Below, piece after piece: positions 3,800-34,278 of a stretch of DNA of 37,582 bases. The position numbers and the translations under genes were made by a program. The stretch comes from Malassezia furfur (lineage: Eukaryota). The notes beneath the pieces were generated by a model that was not told where the DNA came from, searched no databases, and was given only the letters and a program-made list of their open reading frames with translations. Each line of letters opens with the position of its first letter. Position 1 is the first letter of the stretch. The stretch is taken from NCBI GenBank assembly GCA_052055015.1, contig JBQJIT010000064.1. The stretch is one strand, 5' to 3'.

Positions 3800-6700
3800 A
3801 TGGAGGACCGCGCTGCGAAGGCCGCGCGCGCGCGGAAACAGCTGCGCCGGCACCAGGAGGCGCAGCGCAAGAAGCTCGAAGAGGCCCAGGTAGAAAAGGC
3901 ACCGGAGCTGAGCGTCGCCGCAGGGCCGCCGCCAGGGCCGCGGCGCGCACAGGCACCGCCTAGCGCCGCACCACCGCACGGTGCCCCACACCCTGACACC
4001 CATGCGCCCTCCGGGGCGCCGGCGCCACCCGATGGACCGCGTACACAGGGTGCGTCAGATGTGCACGATACGCCACATGCACCACATGCCGCGTCGCCCT
4101 CTGCGCCGGCGCATACGGCCGGGACCGTGGGTACCGACCCCACACGAGCGGATGTGCCAACGTTCCCGGGATCGGCACCGACGCACGACACCGACGCGTC
4201 CACCGAGACAGCAGAGAGCCTGTTTGGCGAACCACCTACTGGCGCGTTCGATGCGCTTGCGCTCGACCTCGCGCCTTCGGCTCCGGCTGCGCCGGCTGCG
4301 CCGGCTGCGCCGGCCGCGCCGGCCAAGGACGTCGCTGGGGCACACGGGTCGGGCGCCGCTGCCCCTGCGGCCGACGAATCGACCGAATACGCCGACCACT
4401 TGTTTGGCGCAGCACCGTCCCAGTCAGTGCCCGATGTATTTGCCCCAAGTGCTCCCAAGACCACTTCGGTGTCCCACACCGTCGACGCGCACGACCCTTT
4501 TGCGGCGTCGGCACCGCAGCCGGAGCGCAACGATGTGTCCTATGGCGATACCGACGACCTGTTTGGCCCCACCTCTCACACACCCCTGCCCTCGCAGGAG
4601 CGTCGGCCATCTCCTGCACCTGCGACCGGTGCACCGCCATCGGACATGGAGCCGTTTGCTGACGACGCCGCGTATGCACCGCAGCATGAAGCAGCATCCG
4701 ACGACCGTGCGCCGCATGCCGAGGCGGATGACCTGTTTGCGCCGAGCACGCAACCATGGTTCGCTCCGCAGGATGCACAGACCGACGCTCCACACGATCC
4801 CGAGCCCTATGCGCCGCAGGGTACAGATTCTTATGCGCCGCAGGGCACAGATTCCTATGCGCCGCAGGACACGGATTCCTATGCGCCGCAGGACACGGAT
4901 GTCTATGCGCCGCAGAGCGAAGATGCCTATGCGCCGCGGGGTATCGATGCCAACGCTCCCCAGGATGTCGACGTCTATGGGCCCCAAGGCAACGATACCT
5001 ATGCCCCCCAGGACTCCGAGGCCTATGGACCGTACGACGCTGAAGGCTTTGTCCCCCAGGATGCGTATGCACCGTATGACGCCGAGGGCTACGCACCCCA
5101 GGACTCCGATCCGTATTCTCCGCCCAAGGAGGCTTCTGCGAAGGCGGATACCGACGCTCCTACCGACGAAATCGACTGGCTGACGTCGGAGCCGAGCGAT
5201 GCGCCTGACGCGGAACAGGCCTCGGACGAACCACGTGCGCCAGAGCCACACCGCGACTCGTCGGCGACGGACTCGTACGAAACCGATGCGTTGTTTGGCG
5301 CCCCGCCGGGTCCGGGCGATACGACGGGTGCGTACGATCCATTTGCCATGCCGACCGCGCCGTCTTCGACCAAGCAAGGCGCTGCGGGAGCGCAAAACGA
5401 TGCGCCGTCGGCCGCGGAACTCGAGACGTATGCACCTGCAGACGATCTCTTTGGCCCAAGTGGCACCGACTGGTATACTTCCACCGAGCCGCGTGCAGTG
5501 GAGGCGACCGCGCCGACCGACCAAGAATCGAGCGATGTCACAGATGCGGGAGCTTTTGCGCCTGCAGACTGGCTCACCGAGTCGACGCAGACGCTGGCGC
5601 CGCTGGAAGAAGAGCCTGAGGAATCACCTCATGAACACGAGGTATCTGAGGAGGCTGCCGGCACGCAGCCGGAGCCTGAAGCGGCGCCGGATGCGGCATC
5701 TGAGGCAGCCCCAGACGCGGTACCTGACCGGGCCGCCGACATGGCGCCCGAGCCAGCGCCCGAGCCAGCGCCCGAAACGGCATCCGATCCAGCACCCGAA
5801 CCGGCCCATCCGCAGAGTCCTCCCACGGACGTCTTCGAGACCGACCGGTATGCACCGCCTGCCTCTGCGTCGTCGGCCGTGGACCTCTTTGGCGCGGACG
5901 AGTCGGGCGATACTACCACACACGACCTCTTCGCAGCACAGGCCGAGGCGGAAGGCGATTCGCGGTTTACGCTGGGCGACTCGGCGTTCCTGGACGAGGC
6001 GTCACGGTCCATTACCTCGTCGTACACGGAGCAGTCGGAGGGCGATGCCGACAAGCTGCGCACTGCGCAGCGCACGATTGTCTCGCTCGAATCCGAGCGA
6101 CGCAAGCTCATGGACTCGGTACGTCACGCGACTCACACAGGCCAACGACGCGGCATCGCGCATCTCGACACTGGTTGCCACTGTGAATGCAACACAGGAG
6201 GCACTCGCTCAGGCTCAGCGCGAAAAGGAGCAGCTCTCGACGCAGTGGCAGCGCGAAAAGGAGCAACTCACCACACAACTTGCGGCACTCCAGGCGCGCA
6301 CGCGCTCGCCGGACACGTCGATGCGCGCCGAGGTCGAGACGCTGCGCGCCGAGAACCGCACGCTGCGTGCGGAGCTAGCGCACCCCTCGACGGACGCCGG
6401 CGCCGATCTGCAGGCGGCACGTGCGCACATCCGCAAGCTCGAGGCGGAGCTCACCAAGGAGGCGGCGCTGACGCACGCTGCGCAGCGCCGCATCCGTGAG
6501 CTGGAGATGGACGAGGGCACTCTGAACCGGCGCGTGGTGTCGAATCCCGTGCTGCCGAGCGGCAAGGTGCACCGGCGGAGCGCGACGGCCGCGTACGTCG
6601 CCACGCCGCGGCTTTCGACGCTGTCCGAGCAGGAACCCATGCCGCTGCGGCGGCGCGCCCCGACCGAGGACGTGCGGCGGCCGACGCGTATGCGGGACGA

Positions 6701-6959
6701 AATTACGCCCGAGCAACGCCACCGGCGGCGCGAGAGTTTGCAGATGCTGCGCGCGCGCATGGACGAGGCCGAGGGTGCGGCTGCAACGGCGCCCGTGCAG
6801 CGGCTCCCGTCGAGCACCCTGTCGATCGTCGATGCGCCCGGCGCCGTGACGAGCGCCGTGCAGGACGAACGCCGCGGCGCACGGAGCCAGACGCGCCAGT
6901 TCTCGCAGGATGCGCTGCTATTTTGTTCGTCGTGTCGGGGGGATCTGATCATTGTATAG
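3800..6959 (+). CDS. Large acidic low-complexity plus coiled-coil protein, candidate Bug1/GM130-like golgin. Exons 3800-6118, 6141-6959
   Basis: ORFs 3800..6499 and 5199..6959 join in frame through the 22-nt intron 6119-6140 (GTACGTCACGCGACTCACACAG), giving ...KLMDS|ANDAASRIS.... Basic N-terminus DRAAKAARARKQLRRHQ, heptad-like region after the intron, C-terminus FCSSCRGDLIIV. The golgin assignment is inference. Confidence 0.7.
4282..4323 (+). repeat. 9-bp coding microsatellite (GCCGGCTGC)n encoding APA repeats
   Basis: ctccggctgc gccggctgc gccggctgc gccggccgc gccggcc, read directly. Confidence 0.8.
4808..5122 (+). repeat. 24-bp coding minisatellite (YAPQ[G/D]TDS-like octapeptide): about 6 well-conserved plus about 7 degenerate units
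   Basis: TATGCGCCGCAG recurs at 4808, 4832, 4856, 4880 and 4904, with TATGCGCCGCGG at 4928. Diverged 24-nt units continue to about 5122. Confidence 0.9.
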
Positions 6960-7139
6960 GGTGTAGCGCACTATGCAATACGCCAAGCGGTACAATACAC
7001 AGGGGCTTGGGATGGAAGGAGACGACGTGCGCCTACGGCCTCGAGCCGCGCGCCGTGCATCATCCACGCTATGCATGCGTCACAGGGCAACAGGGGTCAT
7101 GTCTCGTGAGCCCGTGGGCACAGCCCACGGCTGTGCAGG

Positions 7140-7859
<720 letters not shown>

Positions 7860-8081
7860 TCAGCAAACGACCTCAAACGCCCCGTCCGCGCCTGCGTGCC
7901 TACCTCGCCAGTACGCCGGCCGAGACAGACACTAAAGCTTTTTTTTTAGGGGCGCACGCGCCCGCTGACCTCGGCCGAAACCCCGCGCGCATCGCACCTC
8001 CACCCGTGCAAATTCTAGGCGCTGCACGGCGCAACATCCACCCAGGCGCGCACGGTAGATACCACGCCGCGCTCGCACGCT

Positions 8082-8149
8082 CCATTGGCTGTGCGTCCGC
8101 GCAGACTTGGCATCGTGTGCAGATGGTTGAGTAGGCCCTAGTATATATG
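8082..8149 (+). promoter_or_regulatory. Putative TATA element (TATATAT, 8142-8148) with an upstream inverted CCAAT (ATTGG near 8084)
   Basis: The motifs are read directly in the longest divergent intergenic region, followed by a long pyrimidine-rich, ATG-free leader. Function is inferred. Confidence 0.5.
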
Positions 8150-8560
8150 GGAACGCGCCGCGCACGGGCATACTCTCCGGCCGTCTTGTGCTGGCTCCTA
8201 GCTTGCTGACCCTCTCGCTGCTAGCCTGGCGCTACAGCTTTCCTTCCCCTTTCCCAACTCTCACACACTCACTCCCTTCCCTTACCGTCGGGCTGGTCCC
8301 TGTGGTGTTTCTTTTTTTGCATCCTCCCCTTCCCTGTCTTTTCCCTGACCCCGTCGCATCGGCTTGGAACACCCAAGCTACTTCCTTGCTTCTGTTTCGT
8401 GTCCAAATTCTTTTGCTCGTCCTCCCTTTCCCCCCCTTTGCTATCCCCTTCCTTGTCTCCACTCACCTCCTCCCCCGCTCTCTGCTTCTCCCTTTTCAGC
8501 ATTGGCCGCTCTGCACGCTCCATTCGTCTGTGCGCGCATCTTTCCTAGTAATTAGGAACC

Positions 8561-9862
8561 ATGCCGTGGGCCTCGATGCTCTACAACCTCGACTTTCTTC
8601 CCGGCTCCAAATCGGCTCCGGATTTTTACGCGCCGCAATGGGACCCTTTTGCTAAGCAACCGGAACGCGTCCTCGCACCTGCGCTCATCTCTCCCGATGA
8701 GGGCGCTGAGAGCTCCGAGACCGAGTCTGGATCGGACCCCGAGACCGACAGCGACGACGGTGTTACCGAGACCCCGGCGGCCCCGGTAACCCCACCTCGT
8801 TCTACGTGTTCGCATACCAGCCAGCACACGGCGTCCCCCACCACGGAGCCCAACCTGGATGGCTCGCCCATTCAGTACACGCTTCCACAGCGTCCCGGGA
8901 TCGCCGTGACACGGAACCGCTCGTGGGCGCACCGCAGCGCCGCAGCTGTGCGGCTGTCAGCACGGCTAAGTGTGCATCGAGCACGAATTCCGGCTAATTT
9001 GACGCCCATCACCAACGATGGACTTCACCTTCCGGACCACCAGCAAACCGAGACGGTCTCGCAGAAGCCGCGTTCGGAAGATCGGATTCGTGCGGCACAG
9101 CGGCTGTTTCATGCGCTGAAACAATCGCCGCGTGCTGATGCGGCGGGCAGCGCACAGACCAAGGCGCCCCACTCAGAGGTGCGCTCGCGCGTATCGCTGC
9201 TGCACGGCCTCACTACGCAGGCGCACCGTCGGAACAGCGAGCCACAATGTGCACAGGATATGGTTTTGCACAATGCACACATGCCCCAATTTGTCCCTAC
9301 CATGCATGGGACACAGCAGTGTGTGATCGCGACACAGACCAATACTATTGCTCTTGTGATCACGCCGCCCTCACCTCGCCCTGACCATGGAGAAGGGTTT
9401 AAGCCGGACGTCACAGGCATCCGTATTTCTTCGCATCGTGCGCAAGAATCGGCTGTGCCGGTTCCTAAATCGCCGACCCTCCAGCCGCCGGCCTTTGAGC
9501 TGGCGCCGGGTCGTGCACGCCAAATTGAGCGGCGACGTCAAGAAGCCGCGGAGCGGCTCGCAACCCAACGTGCTCAGCACAATCGTGTAGGTGCCTACAC
9601 GGCGACCATTACGAAAAAGGCCCCGCTTCCTCCTGCCAAGCCTGCACAGACGAGCCCTGGTCGGCCGTTCCTGGGTCCGGTGCGACCTGCGCCGCTGCTG
9701 CCCAAAGAAACTACGCAACAACCACATCGAGTCCCAATCGTGTCGTCTGGTGCATCGCTATCTACGTGCAAGTATGTACCGCCTGGCCGTCGCCGTTGCA
9801 TGCCAGGGCAGGTCTTACATCCTCCGCTTATCGCGCGCGTAGCGCGCCCGCTGGGAGAATAG
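8561..9862 (+). CDS. Hypothetical Ser/Pro/Thr-rich, probably disordered protein (433 aa)
   Basis: Uninterrupted ORF in a lower-GC segment with ACCATG start context, and the first ATG after about 400 nt without one. No recognised domain. Confidence 0.7.
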   Translation: MPWASMLYNLDFLPGSKSAPDFYAPQWDPFAKQPERVLAPALISPDEGAESSETESGSDPETDSDDGVTETPAAPVTPPRSTCSHTSQHTASPTTEPNLDGSPIQYTLPQRPGIAVTRNRSWAHRSAAAVRLSARLSVHRARIPANLTPITNDGLHLPDHQQTETVSQKPRSEDRIRAAQRLFHALKQSPRADAAGSAQTKAPHSEVRSRVSLLHGLTTQAHRRNSEPQCAQDMVLHNAHMPQFVPTMHGTQQCVIATQTNTIALVITPPSPRPDHGEGFKPDVTGIRISSHRAQESAVPVPKSPTLQPPAFELAPGRARQIERRRQEAAERLATQRAQHNRVGAYTATITKKAPLPPAKPAQTSPGRPFLGPVRPAPLLPKETTQQPHRVPIVSSGASLSTCKYVPPGRRRCMPGQVLHPPLIARVARPLGE

Positions 9863-10053
9863 TGACGCACCTCCACTCGGCGCCCGTGCCCCGCCGCACG
9901 CCGAGGGCGTGCAGTGTATAGCAACCTCCACATAGCACTCACGTGCAAATCATCTCTTACTATACAGGATCACGTGTCACCTGTGTCACGGCTGCAGCCA
10001 CCGTCCTTCGGCTCGTGTCCTCACCACACAGCAACTTCTGTTCTAGTGTCGTC

Positions 10054-10629
10054 ATGGTGAGTAACGCAGGGGACGGGGTGTTGCTGGTCTTCGCACCTCA
10101 CTGCTTGTAACATGCCTGTGCAGTTTGTGAGATGAGAGCACAACAGACGACGTGCTTTACAGAACGACTTGGACGCGGACATGTTTGAGCATTGAACGAA
10201 GAGTGCTACCTCTGCCTCGTCCCTCCTCTTCGCGCGATGAAACATATACTAACGATGCAGCCCAAGGTTCGCACTCACGATCTCCACAACAAGTCCAAGG
10301 CGGACCTGCTTTCGCTCCTCGACGAGCTGAAGGCTGAGCTCCTCCAGCTCCGTGTCCAGAAGGTGGCTGGCGGCGGCTCGAGCAAGCTCGGCCGCATCAA
10401 CACGGTGCGCAAGAACATTGCTCGCACCCTCACGGTCATCAACCTCAAGCAGCGCGCGAGCCTGCGTGAGTTCTACAAGGGCAAGAAGTACCAGCCCCTG
10501 GACCTCCGCGCCAAGAAGACCCGCGCGCTCCGCCGCAAGCTCACCAAGCACGAGCAGAAGAAGGTTACCGAGCGCCAGCACAAGAAGAACGTGCACTTCG
10601 GCACCCGCCGCTACGTCATCAAGGCGTGA
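10054..10629 (+). CDS. RPL35: 60S ribosomal protein L35 (uL29). Exons 10054-10056 (ATG only), 10261-10629
   Basis: ATG|GTGAGT...TACTAAC...GCAG|CCC gives MPKVRTHDL...[16 protein letters not shown]...[13 protein letters not shown]...[27 protein letters not shown], the L35 signature. Intron 10057-10260 is 204 nt. Confidence 0.96.
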
Positions 10630-11114: not shown

Positions 11115-11462
11115 TTACGCGCCGCCGCTGTTGTGTTAGAGGGTTTATTTGTCGTGCACATACACAAGCTGGAGGAATGCGCGAAACAGCGCACAAATGT
11201 CAGTACTTGTTCATATACGCGTAATAGGACATACAATGTTGTTAATGGGGATATGGATCAGTTTCACAAGGTAGCCAATGAAGCCCATCACGAGGAAGCC
11301 GACACCGACGGCACGGCACATCTGAATGTACTCTGGCATAAGTCACACTTATTGCGCAAACGCACCCTTGCGGTCCGGCTTCGTACACCGGTTCAAGAAG
11401 TGCACACCCTCGTGCACGAACGACACAGGGAGATCGACAATGTCACGGATCCGCTCCGACAT
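11115..11462 (-). CDS. SSS1: Sec61 translocon gamma subunit. Exons 11462-11366, 11332-11235, 11168-11164 (5 nt), 11127-11115
   Basis: Spliced product MSERIRDIVDLPVSFVHEGVHFLNRCTKPDRKEYIQMCRAVGVGFLVMGFIGYLVKLIHIPINNILVGGA, the canonical SecE/Sec61-gamma sequence. Introns 11333-11365 (33 nt), 11169-11234 (66 nt) and 11128-11163 (36 nt). Confidence 0.93.
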
Positions 11463-11568
11463 GGCGCTACGATATGGAGCGAGCGGCGCGGCGCCTGCGC
11501 TAGCGATTTGATCACGTGACGCTTCGGCGCGAAGCCTTGTTCTTCCCAGCATGTGGACGACGAGTGGG

Positions 11569-12015: not shown

Positions 12016-12074
12016 TTGTGTCGCTCACGGTTCAAAACATACCCGACGACTGATGGTTGCGATGCGCGCCGAGC

Positions 12075-12844
12075 CTACGTACGCTGTGCAGGGAATAGCT
12101 TGGAGACTTGCACACGGCGTGCGACGCCGAATGCGATGGCGAATGCGACGATGGAAAGGACGATGGCCAGGGGCGTGGAGGTGACTTTGCGTCCCCAAAT
12201 GGTGTTCCACAAAGCCAGCATGATCTCCACGACGAGCAGTGCGCCAACGGCATACCCGGACATTCTTGCGTCAGTCAGGATACATACCTGTGGTATTTCC
12301 AGAGGCCCTTTGCTCTGGCCGTGGATCCATACGCTTTTCCGTTGGCCCATACGGTCGACATGCCAAACAAGGCTTGAACCCAGAGTAGGACAAACAAAAG
12401 TGCACCCAGGATCCCATGCAACGAAATAAAGTGCTTTGCTCCCGGCTTACCGTGTGCATGCCACATGACCCACACACCTGCCGTCAAGAGCGGGAGCCCC
12501 AGACCAAGTACGAACACTTGATGCGCATACAAGCCCATCTTTTTGGTAGGCGGTGTATCGGTCGGCTGGAGCACCAAAATTCCTTGCAGGAGGCACAGTA
12601 GTCCCATAGACACGAGCAATGGGTGATACAATGGTGGGGGTACGTGCCCTCCCGTGGAATAGAGAACGAGACACCAGATGCTTGAGACTAGGCCGACGCC
12701 GCCTGCCTGGACCCAAGCTGCACGCCCGCCGAGATTCCCGGCAAGAAAGGCATCCCATGATGGCGTGGTCTCTGACCCCTCTTCTGCGTTGACTAGGCGC
12801 TCGTGTTCGGCATCGGCGGCCGACGTAGGTATCAGCGCAGACAT
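12075..12844 (-). CDS. Cytochrome b561-domain membrane protein. Exons 12844-12288, 12264-12075
   Basis: About six hydrophobic segments with heme-ligand-type histidines (YHPLL, AHQVF, HFISLHG, WKYHRMSG). The 23-nt intron 12265-12287 (GTATGT...ACTGACGCAAG) restores KYHR-MSGY. Confidence 0.85.
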
Positions 12845-13040: not shown

Positions 13041-13564
13041 ATGTCGTTCCTGCCTAGCCGTCTGTCGCTGACTGCCCGCGCCACGCTGCGCACTGTTTCT
13101 CGTGCTACCCAGCCTATGGCTGCGCGTACGCTGACCACCTCGGTGGCTCGTTTCGCCGAGCACCCCCCTATCATTCAGGGCTCGGGTGCGCCCGCCGGCT
13201 CGACGCCCACCGACGAGGACCAGAGCACCGGTCTTGAGCGCTTTGAGCTGTATGGCAAGCTCGAGGGTGTGGATGTGTTCGAGCAGGAGCCGCTGCCTGC
13301 GGACCGTCTCGGCACCATGAAGGACCCGATCAAGGTCCGGAGCATGGTATGTTGATAGCGCGTGACTGACAACAACAGTACCACGAGCACCACATCGGCT
13401 GCACTGGCTTCCCTGCTGAGTCGCACGAGACGCTCTGGCTGAACATGAGCCTCGAGAAGGAGCACACTCGCTGCCCCCGCTGCGGCAGTGGTACGTACCC
13501 AAGTGCACTGACGACAGTCTACCAGCTCGAGTACCTCGGCGAGCCCGTGAACCACCACCACTAA
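13041..13564 (+). CDS. COX4: Cytochrome c oxidase subunit 4 (COX5B family). Exons 13041-13346, 13379-13490, 13518-13564
   Basis: PTDEDQSTGLERFEL, GTMKDPI, IGCTGFPAESHETLW and the zinc motif RCPRCGSVY, with a mitochondrial presequence. Introns 13347-13378 (32 nt) and 13491-13517 (27 nt). Confidence 0.95.
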
Positions 13565-13986: not shown

Positions 13987-15243
13987 TTAGAGCATCTGGA
14001 GGTAGTTGCTCGGCACGATGCCGAGCTCGCCGTTTGGCCGGTAGGCCTGCCACCACTTGCCCGACGAGTCGACAATCTCGAGGATGTCGCCCTTGTTGAA
14101 CGAGATCTCGGTAGGGTCGTCCTCGCTTGCCTTATACGAGTACAGCGCCTCGGCGCGCTGCAGACGCGGCGCAGCGCCCTCGGGCACCCCACCGGTGCCG
14201 ACGCCAGCAAACCCAGTAGACGGCGCGGTCTGCGACACGTTCGAGTACGTCGTCTCGTTGCCCACGATCGGGGGCGCCAACGAGCCGTCGCCCGCGTACT
14301 GCGGCGGGTAGGAGCCCACGGCGCTCGAGTCGAGACCGCTGGTCGGCACGTTCTGCACCATGCCCGACGCGCTTGGCGCCATGCCCGACGCGTTCGGGGC
14401 CATGCCGGCAGCCGAGAGGTTCGAGGCCTGCGACGGCACCGACTCGGGCATCACCGAGTTGTCCACCGCGCGGATCTGCGCCGCGGACGGGTCGACCGAC
14501 GGCGAGTGCGCCACGACGCCCGTCGGCACACCCATGTTGGCCGCGTGCGCGGTGGGGTCCATGTTGACGTTGGTAGCGCCGCCCGAGAGGTTCTGCATGC
14601 CCTGCGTGGTCTTGTTCTTGCCGAGCGAGAAGCGGTTGCGCAGTCCACCGAACGCGCCCGTGGCCGTGTTGCCGAGCGACGACACGCCACCCGTGACGTT
14701 GTTACCGGCGTTGGTCGCGGCGTTGGTCATGCCGCTGATGCCGCCGCCAATGCCCGGCACGGCACCAAACGAGGCGCCCGACGGCTTGCCGCCGGTAACA
14801 GCGCTCTCGGTGCTTTCCGCGTAAGTCAGGTACAGGAGCCAGACCACTGCGGCGATCGAGTAGATCAGGTAGCCGGCACCCATGCCCTGCATGTCGCCGT
14901 CGTCGCTGTACAGGCCGAGATCGGCGCCAAGCACCGACATCACAATCGCGATGATCAAGAAAGGAACGAGGAGCGGCTTGAAGAAGCCCACGGAGCCGAC
15001 AGCGATAAGGAAGCAGATCGCGATGACCAGTGCGAGGTCCACCCAGGTGGTGAACCAGACGTGGTGCAGGTGCAGATGGTCCCGCGATTCAGCCACACAC
15101 TGCGAGACGAACGAGGTGAACCAGCCGATCACGCCGAGAAGGGCGCCGCCGCCGAGAATGAGTGTGCCGATGGCATTTCTGGTGTGAGTTGCGGCGACCT
15201 ACTTTCCGCTGACGCGGTCAAGACCCGGGATTCCACGAGCCAT
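13987..15243 (-). CDS. SHO1: Tetraspan osmosensor/signalling adaptor with C-terminal SH3. Exons 15243-15203, 15178-13987
   Basis: Four N-terminal hydrophobic helices, a Gly/Ser/Ala linker and an SH3 domain ([37 protein letters not shown]...[11 protein letters not shown]). The 24-nt intron 15179-15202 carries an in-frame TAG. Confidence 0.92.
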
Positions 15244-17642: not shown

Positions 17643-17652
17643 ACAGAGATAC

Positions 17653-19634
17653 CTACGTGAACCGCCAGGAGGCGCGTGCATCGGTGACCATCCGGCGTGC
17701 CTGCGCGGAGCCGACGAGGCGCTCGAGGCGGAGCAAGTCGTACTTGCAGTAGAGCACCTGGACGGCGATCTCGCTCGGGTCCGGCACCTCTTCGTCGTCG
17801 CTGCGCTGACTGAGCGCGGCGTTGATCAACTCGGGGTAGTACGATGCGTGCTCCGGCGGCGCATAGAAAACGATCGTGCGTGCGCCGCGCAGCAAGTACC
17901 GCCGGTAGAAGTGGAAGCGCTCGGTGACGAGCAAAAAGCTCTTTTTGCCCGCAAAGAACGACTGCCGCGCCCGCGACACGTCCTTGTTCGAGGAGTACTC
18001 AGAGAGCGTCGCGTATGTCAGCGTGCCGGCCTTGCGGAAGTGGTCCTCGACGCGGACAAAGTCAAAGTACGACGGGATGACGATCATGGTATGCGTCGCA
18101 CTCACCGCCGACCGCTCGAGGTGCGGCAGCGTCTTTTGCACAAACAGGTGGAGGCGCGCGTCGGCCTCGCCCTGGGCGTTGGCACACTCGAAGCGCTGGA
18201 AGGTCTGGCGCATGCCCGGGACGACGGTCGCGATCGACGCGTCCTCCGCAGACACCGTCGTGGTGGTGCGCACGCGCCCGGCGACGTTCTGCAGGTGGTG
18301 GAACAGGGTACGGAATTCGGGCGCGTCGAACGATGAGAGCAGGATCGACTGCCGCAGGTTCCGTGCCTGGTCGTCCAGGTACCACGGCTTGACGCGCGAA
18401 AAGTCGGTATCGTGCGCCTGCTTCGGGATGGCATTCAGGCGCTCGAGCACGAACTGCGTGAGTAGGGTGCGGCGTACCTTGACGTGGTCCCAGTTCTGCA
18501 TGAGCATCACGTCCATCTGGTCCACCAGGACAAGCTCAATCGAAGAAAGGTAGTCGGATTCGCTGCGTCAGTGCACCGCCACGTACTGCTCCTTTTCGAT
18601 CAGCAGACGCAGCCCCAGCGGGCTCGCCACGATCACGTCGCTCTCGAAAAACGCGCTGTACAGCTTGAGCGTCTTGCGCGTGAGCTTCACGCCCAGCTTG
18701 AAGTTGTCGTCAATGTTGCCCGCAAACGTCTTGCGGTGGTCCGCGGGGTACCGCGACGCAAACTGCGGGTCCGCCAGCTTGTCCACGGCGTTCGGCGGGA
18801 GCGAAAACTCGGTCTGGAAGCGCGCCTTGTGCTCCACCTGGTCGCACGCCGACACGTCGATCAGGCGCTGTACCCACGCCTTGGCCGAATTGCGGAAGGG
18901 CACGAGGAGCAGCACCTTGGGGCGCGTGAACCCTTGGTCGCGCAGCTCGGGCAGCTCGTCGTCGTGGCCGTCGGCCTTCGCCGCTGCGGCCGCCTTGGCG
19001 AGCCGCTCGTTGTCTTTGAGGATGCGCTGGCGCGTGCGCGCAACATGGCTCATGGCGTGCATGGCAAGCACCGAGCGCAGCCCGTCGTGCTCGTCGAGCG
19101 CAACGCGCGCGTCCCACACGTCGACGTAGCGCCCGACCAGGTCGATCCACTCGCGGTGCGCAGGCGACACCGGCCCGTATTTCGCCTTGAACGCGTTCCA
19201 GATGCGTGCATGGGGCTGTGTGAGAGCGTGCAACGTACCCGTGCTGCGGCGTCACTCTGCTTCTTCCGCACGGCGCGCACCACCGACGCGCCGCCCAGCA
19301 GCGAGACGTGCTCGGGCGCGGTCCAGTGGATGTCGCGCGTATCGATGCCGGCGAGGTCGGCGCTTTCGGCGCCGAAGTGGGTATGAAAGGCGTCCGCAAC
19401 GTCGCCGGCCACCTCGTCGTCCGAGTCGGCAGCGGCCTGCGGCTCGTCGACGGCGGTCGGCTCCTGCGCTGCCGCGGGCGCACGCTCCGTGCGCTTCTCG
19501 ACCGACGGCGCGGGACGACTCGAGACGCGCACACGCTTAGCGCTCCGCTCCTGGTCGTCGTCGTGCCGCAGGTGCGTCGCAGAGACGTTCAGCAAGGTCT
19601 GGAGGCGCACATGCGCCCGGTTGTCCGACCCCAT
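17653..19634 (-). CDS. UTP25: U3 snoRNA-associated protein 25 (DEF). Exons 19634-19239, 19215-18587, 18562-18478, 18453-17653
   Basis: LRDQGFTRPKVLLLVPFR, FAGNIDDNFKLGVK, SDVIVASPLGLR, DYLSSIE, MQNWDHV, DTDFSRVKPWYLD, IPSYFDFVRV and TERFHFYRRY. Introns 19216-19238 (23 nt), 18563-18586 (24 nt, in-frame TGA) and 18454-18477 (24 nt, no stop). Confidence 0.95.
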
Positions 19635-23615: not shown

Positions 23616-25201
23616 CTGGACACTGTCTTGGCGCGCTTGGCCTTTTTCTTCGCCGGCTCGCTAGGTGCGCGCACAAAACAGCACACAAAGAATCCATTGG
23701 AGGCCTCAACGTGCACGGTGCCGGGCGGGACGTCGACGGCACCGCCGGGTGTACACCGCACCATAGACTCTGCGCGAACCTCGTCGCCCCCACACGCCGC
23801 GGGGCGTCCGCGCTCAGGCCACGTCGGCAGCACGTCGGATCGCGGTGCCAAGCGCCAGCGACCTTGCTTCGCCTCGTCGGATGCAAGTACTTTGCATACC
23901 ACTGCCTCGTTCTCTTCCTCATGGATCGAGCACGTCGAGTACGTGAAGCGCTCCAGACCCGGAAACGTCATCGCATGCCGGATCATGTGCTCCTGGAGCG
24001 AGGCCAAATTGGCGAGGCGTGTCGCAAGCGCACTGCCCTTTTCGACGGGGTCGACCTCTTCCACATTGTCTTGCTCGTCGTCCTTGCCTGAGAGATAGTC
24101 TAATCGGTTCACGATTCCGCTGCCCGAGCAACTGGGGTCCAACAGCATGTACTGGATCGCGCCTTGCTCGCTCGGCTCCAACGAGAGAAAATCCAGCTTC
24201 TTGGGATACACGTTGCCATGTTCGCGCGCAAGGCATCCCGCGCGGCTCAGCATGCGCACAAGCGTCGCATACCGCTGCGGCGCACGTTCCAAAGCCGTCA
24301 ACTGCGTCAGTCTCGTTCACGCACCGATCCACGGCCCTGCATCAGCGCACTTAGGTGGCTCGTCTTGTTCCCTGGCGCAGACGTCGCGTCCATCGCCGTC
24401 ACTTCGGTGGCCCCATCGCGCAACGGGTTGAGCACCGCCGCGGGGAAGCAGCTTGCTAGGTCCTGCAAGATCAGCGTGCCGTTCTTGTACAGCTCCGTTT
24501 GCATCAGACGCGTCGTCGCCTGGGGATGGAACGCGAAAACATGGTCCACATGGCGCGACCGGACAAACACAGATCTGCGTTAGTCGTCCAACGTACTCTT
24601 TCTCAATGGTGTCCGTCTCCTCCAATGTCCATCCCTGCTCCGTCAGCGCTTGAATAACGTCGACCGGCGTCGCGCGCAGCGTATTTACACGGCACCAGCG
24701 GGGTATACGCGCCGCGATGCGGCGTTCTTCGGCGCCACTGCGCAGTTCCTCGGGATGTGACTTGCCCATCCTCAACTGGATACGCACAAGCTCGGCATGG
24801 AGCTGCGACCGGTGCCGCTCCAGGCGCTCGCGCGGCGGCCAAGCCTTGGCGGCCTGGATGCCGCGTGAGGCAAATAGCAGGTCATGCACGAGTACGAGCA
24901 AGATGCATGAGGCCAATGTGGGGGCAGGAGGAGGCAGCGCGCCCTTGGTACGGTTCAGCGGGCTCGCTGGCCCGAACCACTTGGGCTCGCGCGCCGCGAT
25001 GTCGACCTTGGCCAGGATGATCTGCAGCGTCGTCCGAAACGAGAGCGTGTTTACGACGAGCGCCAGGATGCGCTTTGCATTGCCTGCTGCGCGTGCATCG
25101 TCCTTTCCTTCGCCTACCTTGGCGGTGATGGCCTTGATGGAGCCGCGGCGTGCAAGAATGTCCTGCAGCGCACGGCCCGCTTGCACGTAAAAATCGGCCA
25201 T
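23612..25201 (-). CDS. RCM1: 25S rRNA m5C methyltransferase (NSUN5/Rcm1 family). Exons 25201-24597, 24574-24325, 24301-23612
   Basis: [44 protein letters not shown] and [12 protein letters not shown]. Introns 24575-24596 (22 nt, GACTAAC branch) and 24302-24324 (23 nt). Confidence 0.92.
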
Positions 25202-25259: not shown

Positions 25260-26550
25260 ATGGTGGTGGATACCAAGTTGTACGACGTGCTGGGCGTCGC
25301 GCCCGACGCGACCGACGCCGAAATCAAGAAGGCATACAAGAAGCAGTCGCTTGCGAATCACCCGGACAAAAACCCCGGCGATGAGAACGCGCAAGTGCGC
25401 TTCCAGGAGGTCTCCGCGGCCTACGAAACGCTCTCGGACCCCGACGAGCGCGCCGCATACGACCGCTACGGCGAGGGTGGCGACCCGCGCGGCGGTGCGC
25501 CGGACATGGACGACATTTTTGGTATGTTTTGCGGCTGACGCAGCGTCGATGTTTGGCGGTCCCTCGTTTGGATTCGGCGGTCCTCCGCCGCCACGCCGTG
25601 CGCAAGACGCCGTTATTCCCTACACGGTCTCGCTCGAGGACCTGTTCAATGGCAAGACGGCACACTTTGCGCTTGAAAAGAACGTGGTGTGCTCGCACTG
25701 CCACGGCACAGGCGGCAAGCCCGGGATGCAGCCAAAAGACTGTGTGACGTGCGGCGGCAAAGGCCGCGTGCTTGAGCAGCGGCAAGCCGGGAATGGCATG
25801 ATTGCGCAAAGCATGGCCCAGTGCAGTGAGTGCAAGGGAACCGGCAAAAAGTTCCGCGAGAAGGAGGCGTGCAAGAAGTGCAAGGGCAACCGCACGGTCC
25901 CGGTCAAGACGCGTCTGCGCCTCGAGATCCCGCGCGGCGCGTACGACGGGCAGCATATCGTCTTTGAGGGCGAGGGCGATCAGCTGGTATGTGCACTCTA
26001 CTTACGCAGCCGGACACGAAACCCGCGTCGGTGATTTTCGAGCTGAAGCAGACGCCGCATGCGTCGTTCGAGGTGCGCGGCATCGACCTGAGCGCAACGG
26101 TGCGCATCAACCTGCTCGAGGCACTGCAGGGCTTCTCGCGCACCGTCCTGACGCACCTGGACGGCCGCCGTCTGCGTGTGACCAAGCAGCGCGGCGATGT
26201 CGTCCGGCCTGGCACCGTGGACGTTGTGCGCGGGGAGGGAATGTACGACCCGCGTATGCGTGACCGCCGCGGCGATCTCTATCTCAAGTACGAGATCGAG
26301 TTCCCGTCAAACGAGTGGGCTCGCACGGTGGACGAAACGGTATGCATGATGACTGACACAGGCGTTGCGCGAATTGCTGCCGCCCAAACGCGAGGACCTG
26401 CCCGAGGAAGAGGACGTCGTGGTGGACGATATCCGTGCCACCGCGGGCAACCTGTCCGAATTCGGCGCCAACGACCGGATGCGTGCGCCCGAGGAGGACA
26501 CGTACGACAACCCGGGTGGAGAGCCCAACGTCCAGTGCGCTCCGCAGTAG
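25260..26550 (+). CDS. Type I Hsp40/DnaJ co-chaperone (Ydj1/Xdj1-like). Exons 25260-25521, 25544-25986, 26010-26339, 26362-26550
   Basis: J domain with HPDKN, G/F region, four CxxCxGxG-type repeats, and C-terminal CaaX (VQCAPQ). Introns 25522-25543 (22 nt), 25987-26009 (23 nt) and 26340-26361 (22 nt) each restore the frame. Confidence 0.93.
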
Positions 26551-26615
26551 GCAGACCTCCACATTCCAAAAACGCACCCAGACTAGTCATAGCGCACACG
26601 TTATCGAGCATTATC

Positions 26616-28052
26616 ATGGGTGAAGACTTTACGAAGAAGAAGCTCTGGGGCGGCCGCTTCACGGGCGAGACCGACCCCGTGATGCATGCATTCAACGAGT
26701 CGCTCTCGTATGACAAGCGCATGTGGGCGCAGGACATCCGCGGCTCGCAAGCGTACGCGAAGGCGCTCGTTGGCTGCAAGGTGCTTACGGCGGAAGAGGC
26801 CCAGACCATCTGTGATGGACTCACCAAGGTCGGCGAGGAGTGGCGCACAAACTCGTTCCAGGCGCAGCCCGAGGACGAGGACATCCACACGGCGAACGAG
26901 CGCCGGCTCAAGGAGCTGATCGGGCCTGTTGCCGGTAAGCTGCACACGGGCCGCAGCCGCAACGACCAGGTCGCGACGGACATGCGTCTGTGGCTGCTGG
27001 ATGAGCTGGACGAACTCGAGTCGCTCGCGACCGAGCTCGTTCATGTCATGGCCAAGCGCGCGCGAGAGGAGGTCGACGTGCTCATGCCTGGCTATACGCA
27101 TCTGCAGCGTGCGCAGCCGATCCGCTGGTCGCACCTGCTCCTGTCGCATGCAACCTACTTTGCATACGACGTGGAGCGCCTGCGTGCGCTGCGTGCGCGT
27201 GTGTCGATGCTGCCGCTCGGTGCGGGGCCGCTGGCCGGCAATCCGTTCGCTGGCCTGGACCGTGCGGCGCTCGCCAAGGACCTCGGCTTCCAGACTGTGG
27301 GCCCCAACAGTATGCACAGCGTTGCTGATCGCGACTTTGTGATTGAGACGCTGATGTGGTGCTCGCTCTTCTCTGTGCACGCGAGCAAGATTGCCGAGGA
27401 CTTGATCATCTACTCGAGTGCCGAGTTCGGTTTCGTGCAACTCAGTGACGCATACAGCACGGGCTCTTCGATCATGCCGCAAAAGAAGAACCCCGACAGC
27501 CTCGAGCTGCTGCGTGGAAAGAGCGGTCGCTTGTTTGGCAACCTGTCGGGCTTTATGATGTCGCTCAAGGGTATCCCGTCTACGTACAACAAGGATCTGC
27601 AGGAGGACAAGGAGCCCATGTTTGACTCGGTCGACACAGCGCTCGCTTGCATCAAGATCCTGACAGGCGTGGTGAGCACCATGTCGGTACGTAACTCACC
27701 CTCGGGCTGACGCAGATCAACGCGACCAAGATGCGCGCGGCACTGACGACTGACATGCTCGCGACCGACCTGGCTGACTACCTGGTCCGCAAAGGCGTAC
27801 GTCTCCATGCTCACCGCCCAGATTCCCTTCCGCGAGACGCACCACATTTCCGGGTCGGCCGTCAAGCTTGCCGAGGACCGCGGGTGCGAGCTGTCCGACC
27901 TGACGCTGGAGGATTTCCGCACGCTGCACCCTGCATTCGAGGCGGATGTGAAGGACGTGTGGGACCCCGAGCAGAGTGTCGAGCGCCGCAACGCGATCGG
28001 CGGCACGAGCCGCCGTGCGGTGCTCGAGCAGGTGGAGAAGCTGCTGGCCTGA
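26616..28052 (+). CDS. ARG4: Argininosuccinate lyase. Exons 26616-27686, 27716-27796, 27822-28052
   Basis: [54 protein letters not shown] and [16 protein letters not shown]. Introns 27687-27715 (29 nt) and 27797-27821 (25 nt). Confidence 0.97.
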
Positions 28053-29874: not shown

Positions 29875-32443
29875 ATGCTTCGGTGTTGGCTCGCGCTCGC
29901 CGTGGGAGCGCTGGGCGTGGTAGGGGGTGCGCATCCACAGAAGCGCACCTACGACACGCACCACTACTATGCGGCAGAAATTGTGCCGCGCGGCGCGTGT
30001 GCGGGCGTGACACCCGAGCACGTCGCCGCGGCGCTCGACGCCGAGTTCGTCGAGCAAGTGGGGGCGCTGCCGCACCACTGGCTGCTCAAGCACGAGAAGG
30101 GCGATGCACTCGCGCGGAGGTCTGTGTATGCAGAGGTTCCCGAGGCACAGGACCCTGTGCTCACGCGGTATGCGGCACTGCGGCGCCGCGCGGCGCCGCA
30201 CACGAAACGGTGTTCCGGTGCGTCATGCGTGTCGGAGGCATGCATCGCCGACGCCTTGCGCGACGTCGAGCGCCAGGTACCCCGCCAGCGGCACAAACGC
30301 GACGTTATTTATGATCCGGCGGCAATGCGCGACGAGTACCCCGAGCTGCGCAAGCCCGTGCCGGTGACCGAAGCATGGATGCGCCCGGCCAGCGGCGCCC
30401 ATGCGGCGCGTGCGCCCGTGCCGCTCAACGTCAGCGCCAAACTGCGCGACGCATTCTCGATCGAGGATCCGCTATTTTTCCAGCAGTGGCACCTCGCAAA
30501 TGTCAAGGACCCCGGGCACGACATCGGGCTTGGCCAGATCTGGTACAATGCGACGGGGCGGGGCGTGACAGTGTCGCTGCTCGACGACGGGCTCGACTTT
30601 AACCATCCCGACATCAAGGCCAACTTTGTACGTGTGCCGCTGACCCCAGGACGAAAAGGGCTCGTACGACTTTAACGACCATACGCCGCTGCCCGAGCCG
30701 CGCCTGTCCGACGACCAGCATGGCACGCGATGTGCGGGCGAAATTGCGGCGGTGCGCAACGACATGTGCGGCGTCGGCGTCGCGCCCGACGCGCACGTCT
30801 CGGCGGTGCGCATCCTGAGCGGTGCCATCACCGATGCAGACGAAGCCGCGGCGCTCAACTTTGCGTACGACACCAACTCGATCTACAGCTGCAGTTGGGG
30901 TCCGCCGGACAACGGTAAGAGCATGGATGCGCCCAAGGGGCTGGTGGCCAAGGCGCTGCTCAATGGCATTTACAATGGGCGCAACGGCAACGGGAGCATC
31001 TACGTGTTCGCTGGCGGCAACGGCGGTGCGAGCGACGACCAGTGCAACTTTGACGGCTACACCAACTCGATCTATACGGTGACCATCGCTGCAGTCGACC
31101 ACCTCGGTCACCACCCATACTACTCGGAGATGTGCAGCGCAATCATTGCGTCGAGCTACAGCTCGGGCGGCGGCCAGGCGATCACCACAACCGACATTTC
31201 GCGCGATGGTGCGCCGCAGTGCACGTCGCTGCACGGTGGTACAAGTGCTGCGGCGCCGCTGGTCGCGGGGATGCTTGCGCTCGTGCTGGAGCTGCGTCCC
31301 GAGCTGACGTGGCGCGACGTGCAGCATGTCCTGATCGCCGCCGCGGAGCCCATCAACGCCGAGGACCCCGACTGGGAGACGAACGGTGTGGGGCGCAAAT
31401 TCTCTCACAAGTACGGCTACGGCGTGGTGCATGCGACGCGCCTGCTCGCCGTCTCGCTCGCACACAAACTAGTCCCACCGCAGGCATGGCTCGAGACGCC
31501 GCAGCACAACACGAGCACGCCGCGCCTCGAGTTGAACCAGACGAGCTCGGTGCCGATCGAGGTGACGTCCGCGATGCTGGAGCAGGCGAACCTCTTGTCG
31601 CTCGAACACGTTACGGCCACCGTCTGGATCGAGCATGACCGCCGCGGCGACGTGCAGGTTGAGCTCTTCTCGCCGCACGGGACACGCAGCGTGCTGGCGA
31701 GCCCGCGGCGCTACGACTCGGACGGCAACGGGTTCCCCGGGTGGACGTTTATGTCGCTCAAGCACTGGGGTGAGGACATGCTCGGCACCTGGCGCCTCCA
31801 AGTGTCGGACCATGCTGATGCACAGCGCGAGGACCGGCTGCCGGCCAACTTTACGGGGTGGTCGCTCACACTGTGGGGTGCCGCGCGCGACGCAAGCAAG
31901 GCCAAGCCGTGGGACTTCCCCGAGGGCTCCGAGGAGCATAGCCTGACGCTCTCGGGCGCGCCGAGCAGCACCGTGCTGCACCACCCCGCGGTGACGCCGA
32001 CCAACACGCTCACGCTCAACAAGCCCACCCACGCGCTCCCCGACGACCACCATACGCGCCCGGGCGAGACACACCAGTCGTTCGGGAGCCAGGTGCAGAC
32101 GCCCGAGGCGGACACGGGCTACCTCGCGGGCCTGACGCGGCACTCGACATGGCTGGCGGTGGCTGCCGGTGTTGCGTTGGTAGTGGGCGTGGGCCTGCTA
32201 CTCTACTTCTACCGGCGGCTTCGCACGATGCGGCGCTACCAATACCTCCCGAGCGACGAGAACGAAATCCGGCTGGGCACGCTGCCCACCGACGTCCAGG
32301 CGCGTGACCTGTACAACGCCTTTGCGCTGGACGACGATGAGCTCGACGGCGATGATGAGCTCGACGGCGACGATGCGGATGCGAAAGATGAACAGGCGCT
32401 CGCCCCCCCTTCGTACATATCTACATCACAAGAGCATACGTAG
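29875..32443 (+). CDS. KEX2: Kexin, subtilisin-like proprotein convertase. Exons 29875-30627, 30650-32443
   Basis: Signal peptide, prodomain ending RHKR, catalytic DDGLD / HGTRCAGE / GGTSAAAP, P-domain, TM helix and acidic tail. The 22-nt intron 30628-30649 joins ANF|DEKGSYDFND. Confidence 0.96.
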
Positions 32444-33655: not shown

Positions 33656-33770
33656 GCTGCAAGGCGCACGACGCGGGGATTGTTGGCGGCAGCGGAGATG
33701 TGCCCTAGGGGGGTCACCTCCACCGGACCGGTTTCGTCTCTCTCCCCCCCCTTGACCCTCTCGGCACTTG

Positions 33771-34278
33771 ATGCCCTACTCGGCGATCCCTACTGTGCTC
33801 GGCGTGGGCACCGCCGGACTGCTGCTGTATGCGGCCAATGCCGCATTTAAGGACCAGACGCAGTTCATGGTGGCCAAGATGGACCGCGACATCGACGCAT
33901 TTGACCGCGTGAGCGAATTCGACAAGGCGACCGGCGCGCGGCGGACGCCGTCGTTCGCCTCGGCATACCAGCCGACGGGCCCGTCGTTCTGGGAAGAGGT
34001 GAAAGGCCGCTGGAATGTAAGTTTTTGTGTACACTGACCGGCAGCACCATCTCGTGAGTGCGATGCACAAGATGTGCGACGCCAACCCGCTGTCGACGAC
34101 CGACAGGACCGACGCGGACTCGTCGTACGTGTCAGACGACACCCGCACGGCGGTGCTCGATGCGCTGCACTCGCTCGCGCCGCACGCGCCCGACGCGCAG
34201 CCCAAAATCGGCATTCTGCACCGCAAGTACGGCGACGAGAACACGCACTACCTCGGGCAGGGCGCGTCGCTGCGGTAA
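33771..34278 (+). CDS. Small membrane protein, MICOS Mic12-like. Exons 33771-34016, 34045-34278
   Basis: N-terminal hydrophobic GxxxG helix and the FWEEVKGRWN motif. The 28-nt intron 34017-34044 (GTAAGT...ACTGAC..GCAG) joins ORFs 33768..34037 and 34027..34278. The family call is tentative. Confidence 0.6.

Follow-up and report, generated by a model that had tools for sequence, protein, structure and literature searches.

Introns of 22 to 25 nucleotides with yeast-type splice signals in a genomic locus of Malassezia furfur

Results

The window analysed here, a stretch of 37,582 nucleotides from Malassezia furfur (GenBank contig JBQJIT010000064.1), contains a population of very small introns, mostly of 22-33 nt. 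With a probability of roughly 0.88 by our own estimate, these are ordinary introns of the major type (U2-dependent, GT-AG) in a yeast of the M. furfur clade, apparently reduced to little more than their signals. When an intron is taken out, the frame of a conserved protein becomes continuous again, and the definition is across the intron itself; the excision of these introns and the efficiency of their splicing are predicted from the sequence. The genus Malassezia, as named in an earlier note on this DNA, agrees with the nearest proteins, which come from M. furfur and M. brasiliensis.

The earlier note had listed 13 introns of 22 to 25 nt, and their coordinates and ends proved right throughout: on the strand given for them, 13/13 segments have GT as their first and AG as their last two letters, both strands being used (about five on the plus and eight on the minus strand). 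Five of them are 22 nt long, four 23 nt, three 24 nt and one 25 nt. The rebuild of the whole window resulted in 22 introns, all with GT...AG ends, comprising in addition to these lengths one intron each of 27, 28, 32, 36 and 66 nt and two each of 29 and 33 nt. The claimed median of 24 nt and the absence of introns below 22 nt were reproduced in this set (median 24, mode 22, minimum 22, 0/22 below 22). A further intron 5′ of RPL35 (3′ end near 10260) was left out of the 22 and, when counted, gives the 23 introns of the earlier note. Regarding the length modulo 3, the 22 introns fall into classes of 8/7/7, an even split at small n that is the expectation for non-coding inserts. At least one of the eight introns with a length divisible by three (18454-18477) is free of stop codons. 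In Paramecium, stop-free introns of such lengths are depleted, and a depletion of this type is not visible in the small number of introns of the window.

The GC content of the rebuilt introns ranges from 42 to 68%, that of the window DNA is 65%. In DNA of this composition it was misleading to derive the phase from the longest open frame to each side (e.g. at 24302), and homology together with a codon-usage map was used instead. The frames of this map change at introns whose length is not a multiple of three. For comparison at the DNA level, a syntenic region from a second Malassezia species (L001) was used.

In the gene for UTP25 on the minus strand, three short introns were found. At intron 1 (19216..19238, 23 nt) the frame switches, and the spliced reading ...AAR|PHARIW corresponds to a continuous SRPHARIW in the L001 DNA and in other Malassezia proteins. 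Intron 2 (18563..18586, 24 nt) would be translated into eight residues including a stop, an insert which is absent from 12/13 homologues, and the Pfam profile UTP25_NTPase-like runs from 1-172 and 177-266 at this point. Reading through intron 3 (18454..18477, 24 nt) adds eight residues that are absent from 13/13 homologues. The tblastn search ran straight through both 24-nt introns, and the spliced and read-through forms were aligned instead. As intron 3 has a length divisible by three and no in-frame stop, its retention would yield a viable isoform with an eight-residue insertion. All three UTP25 introns are precisely absent from the L001 DNA.

In the cytochrome b561 gene, the 23-nt intron at 12265..12287 (minus strand) joins WKYHR|MSGY, which aligns without gap in 15/18 homologues; of the remaining three, two read through an intron at the junction and one is truncated there. 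L001 carries an intron at the same position, with a length of 33 nt. For SHO1 (15179..15202, minus strand, 24 nt), the intron follows a first exon of 41 nt, and the spliced N-terminus fits the MARG... N-termini of homologues from other Malassezia, Ceraceosorus and Sporobolomyces; intron retention leads to a stop after one codon. The NSUN5/RCM1 gene on the minus strand has a 22-nt intron 1 (24575..24596), where the Pfam profile NSUN5_fdxn-like is divided into 1-32 and 46-78, the second half being weak (E 0.022), and a 23-nt intron 2 (24302..24324), where Methyltr_RsmB-F extends over two ORF pieces with 9-36 and 34-158.

Three introns on the plus strand interrupt the gene for a YDJ1-type DnaJ protein. 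The J domain is encoded in another frame than the zinc-finger domain, and the switch is confined to 25500-25594; intron 1 (25522..25543, 22 nt) is located there in the variable G/F region, and thus without continuity at residue level. For intron 2 (25987..26009, 23 nt), residue 146 of exon 2 aligns to position 324 of 7zhs_A and residue 1 of exon 3 to position 326, and on 1nlt_A the flanks are residues 136 and 138. Splicing of intron 3 (26340..26361, 22 nt) results in the end ...NVQCAPQ*, a CaaX box, and in the unspliced form the frame continues for 456 codons, into the argininosuccinate lyase (ASL) gene. The latter has two introns on the plus strand. Intron 1 (27687..27715, 29 nt) has its junction at 354|355 of 1k62_A: residue 139 of exon 1 aligns to 353, residues 4-27 of exon 2 align to 358-381, and residue 1 of exon 2 is projected onto 355. 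At intron 2 (27797..27821, 25 nt) exon 2 ends on 381 and exon 3 begins on 382 of the same chain, and Pfam ASL_C2 runs 2-15 and 14-69. The kexin gene KEX2 is interrupted by a 22-nt intron (30628..30649, plus strand) with exon 1 ending on residue 76 of 2id4_A and residue 3 of exon 2 on 79, i.e. with a junction at 76|77.

A gene for a coiled-coil protein restricted to Malassezia, extending from an ATG at about 3800 to a stop at 6957-6959, has a 22-nt intron at 6119..6140 (plus strand; GTACGT..ACTCAC..ACAG), where the coding frame switches. Proteins of M. psittaci and M. yamatoensis align as ...LMDS|ANDAA... precisely at 6118|6141, and a protein of a relative (P0122) translates through a 24-nt in-frame version of this intron.

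The longer introns of the window were found in CDC42, SSS1, COX5B and a small gene, besides the first intron of ASL. CDC42 (minus strand) has a 29-nt intron 1 (7739..7767) after a first exon of 16 nt, with the Pfam Ras profile beginning at position 3 in this exon piece, and a 33-nt intron 2 (7635..7667), at which the same profile is divided into 3-25 and 25-160 over two ORF pieces. The second of these is located at the same codon in L001 and is 30 nt long there. For SSS1 (Sec61-gamma, minus strand), intron 1 (11333..11365, 33 nt) is preceded by a weak Pfam SecE match (profile 2-20) at the end of exon 1, and the alignment of exon 2 with Sec61-gamma chains begins at residue 34. The further structure of this gene is a model with a micro-exon between intron 2 (11169..11234, 66 nt; GTATGT..ACTGAC..first AG) and intron 3 (11128..11163, 36 nt; GTATGT..TCTAAC..ACAACAG). 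The modelled C-terminus reads ...NNILVGGA*, and fungal chains of 70 residues have five residues after NNI. COX5B (plus strand) has a 32-nt intron 1 (13347..13378), with Pfam COX5B 15-77 and 79-128 over two ORF pieces, and a 27-nt intron 2 (13491..13517), where the read-through ORF has 60 residues over 50 profile positions; the spliced reading is ...CPRCGS|VYQLEY...HHH*. In a small gene (33771-34278) a 28-nt intron (34017..34044, plus strand; GTAAGT..ACTGAC..CGGCAG) was placed by a frame switch with coding signal on either side, a basis without homology.

The claim of the earlier note that the introns are needed to restore conserved proteins is thereby borne out for all 13 of its introns by support that does not depend on the splice motif, at different levels: residue-exact for about nine, domain- or terminus-level for 15179, 24302, 24575 and 26340, and by frame logic only for 25522. 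The weaker-supported junctions are 24575-24596, with its half-domain of E 0.022, 25522-25543 in the variable G/F region, and 6119-6140, for which homologues come only from Malassezia-like sources and some of these are themselves predictions.

Frameshifts from assembly or sequencing, or coding insertions, might be mistaken for introns. The eight introns with a length divisible by three, one of them stop-free, would be compatible with such an origin, and the public protein predictions of relatives do read through equivalent segments. However, errors would not bear GTAYGT...CTNAC...CAG in 13/13 cases, and the inserts are precisely missing at these points in the DNA of the relative and in distant homologues. 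In addition, the length differences between species are not multiples of three with the flanks still in frame, and the motif is enriched over shuffled sequences (see below). We therefore consider this explanation extremely improbable. The shortest intron with coding support in L001 is 22 nt long. Two shorter motif matches in this locus, of 21 nt and 16 nt, were rejected as introns, the coding scores being negative on both sides.

The 13 short introns are uniform in their signals. Their 5′ hexamers are GTAYGT-like, and their 3′ ends are CAG in 12/13 and AAG in 1/13. The adenosine of the motif (R)CTNAC, which probably represents the branch nucleotide as judged from its sequence context, is located at intron position 16 (one intron), 17 (six), 18 (four) or 19 (two). 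Between this predicted branch A and the 3′ end the distance amounts to 5 nt in 9/13, 6 nt in 3/13 and 8 nt in 1/13. A pyrimidine tract is absent, and there is no space for one. The geometry that the earlier note had described, with the branch A at 16-19 and no pyrimidine tract, was thus recovered by computation. The signals and the geometry are uniform across all 22 rebuilt introns, including those of 27-66 nt: GTRNGY at the 5′ site is found in 22/22 (GTAYGT in 16/22), as is a CTNAY branch motif with use of the first AG downstream, where for the nine introns added to the 13 the motif itself was part of finding them.

The frequency expected by chance was estimated by a loose motif scan on both strands in comparison with 200 dinucleotide shuffles. 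For lengths of 22-24 nt, 13 matches were obtained vs 2.7 expected, and for 22-33 nt there were 26 matches vs a shuffle mean of 11.1 and a shuffle maximum of 21. Between 14 and 21 nt, one match was found vs 4.2 expected. This match, of 18 nt, lies within the KEX2 intron as a nested alternative and was rejected as an intron.

These signals also bear on the question of whether the segments could be removed without the major spliceosome, either by an endonuclease and ligase of the IRE1/HAC1 or tRNA type or by the minor U12 spliceosome. The unusually small size is the sole point for it, but both the ends and the motif between them are characteristic of the major spliceosome, and the introns of 27-66 nt carry identical signals. 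No AT-AC intron and no ATATCC-type 5′ site is present among the 22 rebuilt introns (0/22), nor does any of them combine the U12-type ATATCC-type 5′ site with a TCCTTAAC branch. Rfam detected no structured RNA family in the window, and hence no snRNA gene here. Excision of this kind appears even less probable to us than an origin from sequence errors.

Discussion

The short introns of the window have a layout consisting of a budding-yeast-like GUAYGU, six to nine free nucleotides, a strong (R)CUNAC, another five to eight nucleotides and CAG. About 14 of 22 nt are signal, with the first AG past the predicted branch being used and no pyrimidine tract being involved. The lower edge at 22 nt may be the sum of two minimum distances, one from the 5′ site to the branch (A not before position 16) and one from the branch to the 3′ site (5 nt), and would most likely reflect the closest placement of lariat and 3′ site that the catalytic centre allows. 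Early recognition over such a spacer would be unlike that in the S. cerevisiae A complex and would have to be sequential or else more compact, a requirement that would also hold for ciliates. As a floor, 22 nt is suggestive, based on 22 introns and one relative locus. If this edge holds genome-wide, both of these minima would become measurable quantities of a fungal spliceosome.

The earlier note had proposed that U1 and U2 could hardly bind these introns together and that assembly would consequently be modified, which is a plausible structural inference. The spliceosome of this lineage would then follow a changed assembly route, for example one that is U1-independent, strictly sequential (U1, then U2) or based on direct recognition by the tri-snRNP, because U1 and U2 would not fit on sites 6-9 nt apart. 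The spacer between hexamer and CTNAC is indeed just 6-9 nt in the 13 short introns, and by arithmetic a 22-nt intron leaves only about 5 nt between the U1 and U2 duplexes. According to a modelling study on the S. cerevisiae A complex (PMC12350175), linkers shorter than 42 nt break the chain, as calculated for a construct in which a zipper stem was docked, and a U1-less spliceosome is present in the red alga C. merolae (PMC10158995). However, the content of the window says nothing about snRNPs. Stentor, with introns of 15-16 nt, retains all snRNAs, and of the proteins the three core ones of U1 and almost the full set of U2 (PMC9505925), so tiny introns alone do not imply loss or rerouting. Furthermore, the 5′ sites are strong and of U1/U6 type (with the GTAYGT share given above), which argues for retained U1-type recognition. 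Altogether, we regard a changed route as doubtful.

Also tentative, and in our estimate rather unlikely, is the proposal that the M. furfur clade has a normal-looking fungal spliceosome that works at a hard limit of 22 nt, set by minima of 16 nt from the 5′ site to the branch A and 5 nt from there to the 3′ end, with an early assembly unlike the textbook A complex. Early assembly would have to differ because the U1 and U2 duplexes lie so close to each other. If true, splicing of minimal introns, so far approached only in ciliates and parasites, could be studied in a model yeast that can be cultured and transformed and that has tiny introns with strong signals by the thousand.

Among known systems, the ciliates are similar in several respects. 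The introns of Paramecium (about 25 nt), Stentor (15-16 nt) and Nyctotherus have narrow length distributions near a physical minimum, as those of the window may have, and share with them the GT-AG ends, a branch A placed shortly before the 3′ end and the lack of a pyrimidine tract (PMC9505925, PMC8997360, PMC5014332). Likewise, the puzzle of fitting snRNPs is the same for ciliate introns of 15-25 nt (PMC9505925). In contrast, ciliate introns are AT-rich with a weak branch consensus, whereas those of the window are GC-richer and have strong yeast-like GUAYGU and CUNAC signals. Introns below 30 nt have also arisen independently in microsporidian, nucleomorph, dicyemid and myxozoan lineages with reduced genomes (PMC13644364). 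Microsporidia have few introns and a reduced spliceosome (PMC10158995). These lineages are parasites or endosymbiont remnants, whereas Malassezia yeasts can be grown in culture and transformed, and their introns number in the thousands. In the 2026 survey of lineages with introns below 30 bp (PMC13644364), Malassezia is not listed. The genus is absent from such recent lists, yet its tiny introns carry strong signals of the yeast type and it is open to genetic work. S. cerevisiae uses near-identical signal words (GUAUGU, a UACUAAC-like branch and YAG) and also the first AG after the branch, but its distance from 5′ site to branch amounts to tens to hundreds of nucleotides compared with 16-19 nt in the short class of the window.

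Within the genus, very short GT-AG introns are known. The annotation of M. sympodialis ATCC 42132 comprises 5350 introns, on average 30 bp long and 99% supported by RNA-seq (PMC5389616, Table 2), and the size distribution is plotted in Figure S8 of the same paper. In M. restricta KCTC 27527 the introns have a mean length of 37.2 and a median of 30.0, and the gene finders were run with a minimum intron length of 20, then 15. A review likewise mentions "very short introns". The introns of the window are thus ordinary for the genus and perhaps somewhat shorter here, the sample (n=22) having a lower median than these published sets. The earlier note itself was aware of short introns in Malassezia, but the novelty it claimed was overstated, since a mean and a median of 30 had been published. 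The discovery is accordingly modest, the phenomenon being contained already in annotation statistics of the genus. In the literature searched, neither the geometry of the branch site nor a minimum intron length was described for Malassezia: a bioRxiv preprint on fungal spliceosome complexity does not mention the genus, PMC8476143 treats M. sympodialis only as intron-poor, and PMC3560662 contains nothing on nuclear intron length.

A practical consequence concerns annotation. In public databases, the predicted proteins of close relatives read through the introns described here or start inside them. In read mapping, the default settings of aligners such as STAR may likewise take gaps below about 21 nt for deletions. 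Gene finders run at their default minimum intron size will, in view of the read-through seen in relatives, predict many Malassezia proteins wrongly.

Evidence for the short introns

The earlier note had proposed 13 introns of 22-25 nt in the window. All of these segments (13/13) lie at the coordinates given there, start with GT and finish with AG on the coding strand, and their lengths were found as claimed: 22 nt in five cases, 23 nt in four, 24 nt in three and 25 nt in one. As long open frames arise by chance in DNA this GC-rich, simple frame logic is unreliable, and independent evidence was therefore sought for each junction. When ORF pieces delimited by stop codons were scanned with Pfam, and again with relaxed settings, single domain profiles proved to be divided between neighbouring pieces at the claimed intron sites. 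This applies to UTP25_NTPase-like in UTP25 (profile positions 1-172 and 177-266 on either side of intron 18563-18586), to Methyltr_RsmB-F (9-36 and 34-158; 24302-24324) and NSUN5_fdxn-like (1-32 and 46-78, the second half being weak with an E-value of 0.022; 24575-24596) in NSUN5/RCM1, to DnaJ_C in the YDJ1-type DnaJ gene (4-55 and 61-152; 25987-26009), to ASL_C2 in the argininosuccinate lyase gene (2-15 and 14-69; 27797-27821) and to Peptidase_S8 in KEX2 (1-24 and 30-288; 30628-30649).

Searching single exons against solved structures rendered several junctions residue-exact. At DnaJ intron 25987-26009, exon 2 reaches residue 324/325 of 7zhs_A and exon 3 sets in at 326, and on 1nlt_A the junction lies at 136 and 138. 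The first KEX2 exon extends to residue 76 of kexin (2id4_A), with residue 3 of exon 2 matching residue 79. The exon junctions of argininosuccinate lyase (introns starting at 27687 and 27797) fall between residues 354 and 355 and between 381 and 382 of human ASL (1k62_A).

Further support came from homologues (a slash marks the junction). When spliced and read-through forms of UTP25 were aligned with 13 homologues, the 24-nt segments 18454-18477 and 18563-18586 each appeared as an insertion of 8 residues, missing from 13/13 and 12/13 homologues, respectively; in the one deviating case, an annotated protein from M. psittaci, the equivalent intron has been translated. At the cytochrome b561 intron (12265-12287), 15 of 18 homologues show a gapless WKYHR/MSGY, two read through the intron at the same point and one is truncated there. 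The spliced Sho1 N-terminus (MARG...SGK/NAIG, intron 15179-15202) agrees with MARG-type Sho1 N-termini of other Malassezia, Ceraceosorus and Sporobolomyces. For the coiled-coil protein gene restricted to Malassezia, proteins of M. psittaci and M. yamatoensis align as LMDS/ANDAA exactly at the junction of 6119-6140. Spliced DnaJ terminates in CAPQ, a CaaX box; unspliced, its frame continues for 456 codons into the next gene. The weakest case of the 13 is 25522-25543, located in the variable G/F region of DnaJ. Here, J domain and zinc-finger domain are read in different frames, which requires a switch somewhere within 25500-25594. A codon-usage map trained on confident genes of the window also shows frame changes at those introns whose length is not a multiple of three. 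Taken together, Pfam profiles, structures, homologue alignments and spliced termini support the claim that intron removal restores conserved proteins, and the 13 introns are confirmed as real.

Motif statistics point in the same direction. Matches to a permissive motif (GTRNGY followed by CTNAY and then, within 12 nt, by the first AG) were counted on either strand of the window and set against 200 dinucleotide shuffles. Matches of 22-24 nt numbered 13 against an expected 2.7, and those of 22-33 nt 26 against a shuffle mean of 11.1 and maximum of 21. Between 14 and 21 nt, a single match was observed with 4.2 expected, and this one is an 18-nt alternative nested within the KEX2 intron.

Comparison with a related locus

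With an alignment of Malassezia UTP25 as query, a scan of metagenome contigs yielded a locus of another Malassezia species (L001; 60% GC, 62% protein identity) that is syntenic with the window over the GTPase, UTP25, NTR2, SHO1, b561 and CDC42 genes. Its UTP25 (10001-11947, corresponding to 17656-19634 in the window) is uninterrupted at all three intron positions (19216-19238, 18563-18586 and 18454-18477) and corresponds there exactly to the spliced form of the window. At the same codons of b561 and CDC42, introns are present in both species with different lengths, 33 nt in L001 versus 23 nt in the window and 30 nt versus 33 nt. The segments might alternatively be coding insertions or errors in the sequence, but neither would be expected to come and go at exact codon boundaries or to differ in length by amounts not divisible by three; introns show both features. 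The two species thus differ in intron presence, the three UTP25 introns being found in the window only.

Intron anatomy and a possible lower length limit

In total, 22 introns were rebuilt, with a median of 24 nt and a minimum of 22 nt. Beyond the 13 short ones, they measure 27, 28, 29 (two), 32, 33 (two), 36 and 66 nt, and length classes modulo 3 are even (8/7/7). All 5' sites conform to GTRNGY (GTACGT 8, GTATGT 8, others 6). The branch words are ACTGAC (8), ACTCAC (3) and GCTGAC (3), the rest conforming to CTNAY, and 21 of 22 introns end in CAG. In the 13 short introns, the presumed branch A is at position 16-19, a free spacer of 6-9 nt follows the 5' hexamer, and the last G lies 5 nt beyond the branch A in nine, 6 nt in three and 8 nt in one. 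There is no room for a pyrimidine tract, and in the shortest introns the signal occupies about 14 of 22 nt. The geometry had thus been described accurately. With values of 0.42 to 0.68, intron GC tracks the local GC content.

Very short introns are already known for the genus and have close parallels elsewhere. For M. sympodialis, 5350 introns with a mean of 30 bp are tabulated, 5271 (99%) of them supported by RNA-Seq (PMC5389616, Table 2; size distribution in its Figure S8). M. restricta introns are given a mean of 37.2 and a median of 30.0 (PMC9241646), its annotation used a minimum intron length of 20 and then 15 (PMC6473144), and a review on Malassezia mentions 'very short introns' (PMC7426719). 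Compared with these two species, the window median of 24 lies below the published figures, which is only a hint given 22 introns from one 37-kb window. Where a 2026 survey names lineages with introns below 30 bp, it lists ciliates, Microsporidia and Dicyemida and not Malassezia (PMC13644364); in the relevant part of a fungal intron survey, M. sympodialis is covered solely as intron-poor (PMC8476143). Literature searches yielded no description of branch geometry or minimum intron length in Malassezia.

The proposed floor at 22 nt is suggestive: the minimum holds in the window and among the introns of L001 with coding support on both sides, although the sample is too small to settle it. Motif matches of 21 nt and 16 nt in L001 are without support of this kind.

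Splicing mode and early assembly

The analysis drew on the window sequence, homology, the literature and a single related locus from metagenome data. The introns carry major-spliceosome signals in their budding-yeast version, and the 22-nt and the 66-nt introns share these words. Ordinary U2-type splicing by intron definition would be the simplest reading, with the adenosine of CTNAC probably serving as branch nucleotide and the branch set as near to both intron ends as the machine permits. The edge at 22 nt would then result from adding two minimum distances, 16 nt between 5' end and branch and 5 nt between branch and 3' end.

By arithmetic from this geometry, the U1 duplex (to +6) and the U2 duplex (from about 5 nt before the branch) lie about 5 nt apart on a 22-nt intron. 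Modelling on the structure of the S. cerevisiae A complex found that the 5' site, the branch and a docked zipper stem cannot be bridged by a linker shorter than 42 nucleotides (PMC12350175), from which we infer that a budding-yeast-like A complex would be unable to form on the short introns of the window. An altered assembly route may follow, whether through binding in sequence, through greater compactness of the complex or by other means. However, Stentor, which splices introns of 15-16 nt with the branch A at position 10-11, has kept every snRNA, the core proteins of U1 and nearly all those of U2 (PMC9505925); small size by itself is therefore not evidence that the machine has changed. A spliceosome lacking U1 has been described, though in an alga whose introns are of unremarkable length (PMC10158995). 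Malassezia could offer a tractable yeast model for minimal-intron splicing.

Consequences for annotation

Several predicted proteins of relatives (P0003, P0122, P0145, P0146, P0190 and P0193) mishandle the equivalents of 18563-18586, 6119-6140, 15179-15202 and 12265-12287. Short introns are translated in the UTP25 of M. psittaci and in two b561 homologues, P0122 reads through a 24-nt in-frame version of 6119-6140, and the M. brasiliensis Sho1 prediction begins inside the equivalent of 15179-15202 (MAHTRN...). Such annotation errors stem from the tiny introns, and since public predictions read through or start within them, our results are of practical value for annotation. On the plus strand, 25968-27707 forms one unbroken ORF covering the 3' portion of DnaJ together with most of the argininosuccinate lyase gene. 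Only the 22-nt intron 26340-26361 moves DnaJ into the frame ending in the CaaX box, with a stop at 26548, and a naive ORF caller would merge both genes.

Gene content of the window

The 37.6 kb are GC-rich (56-71% per 2 kb) and densely packed with fungal housekeeping genes. The nearest proteins to the translated exon pieces are from Malassezia, in agreement with the earlier note. A UTP25 exon has 95% identity to the M. furfur CBS9595 protein, and Sho1 has 85% to M. brasiliensis and 99% to one further record. Judged by these identities, the source organism belongs to the M. furfur clade. Between CDC42 and RPL35, about 2 kb (7900-10100; GC 0.56-0.61) carry no coding signal in any frame of the codon-usage map, no Pfam match above noise and no Rfam match.

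All but three of the 27-66 nt introns are in the small housekeeping genes CDC42, SSS1 and COX5B, in the less GC-rich region 7100-13600; outside it, 22-25 nt introns occur in GC-rich genes. The intron preceding RPL35 (10100-10262, plus strand) ends with a perfect TACTAAC branch word and CAG. Known from its 3' end, it stands outside the 22, is longer than the rest and is probably the 23rd intron of the earlier note. In SSS1 (Sec61-gamma; 11128-11234, minus strand), exon 2 ends with ...IHIPINNI at residue 65/70 of fungal Sec61-gamma chains. A candidate 5-nt micro-exon (11164-11168) between the 66-nt and 36-nt introns adds the missing five residues, LVGGA, followed by a stop. Unrelated tails result if one intron of 107 nt is assumed or only the first 3' site is used, and SSS1 seems to require the micro-exon.
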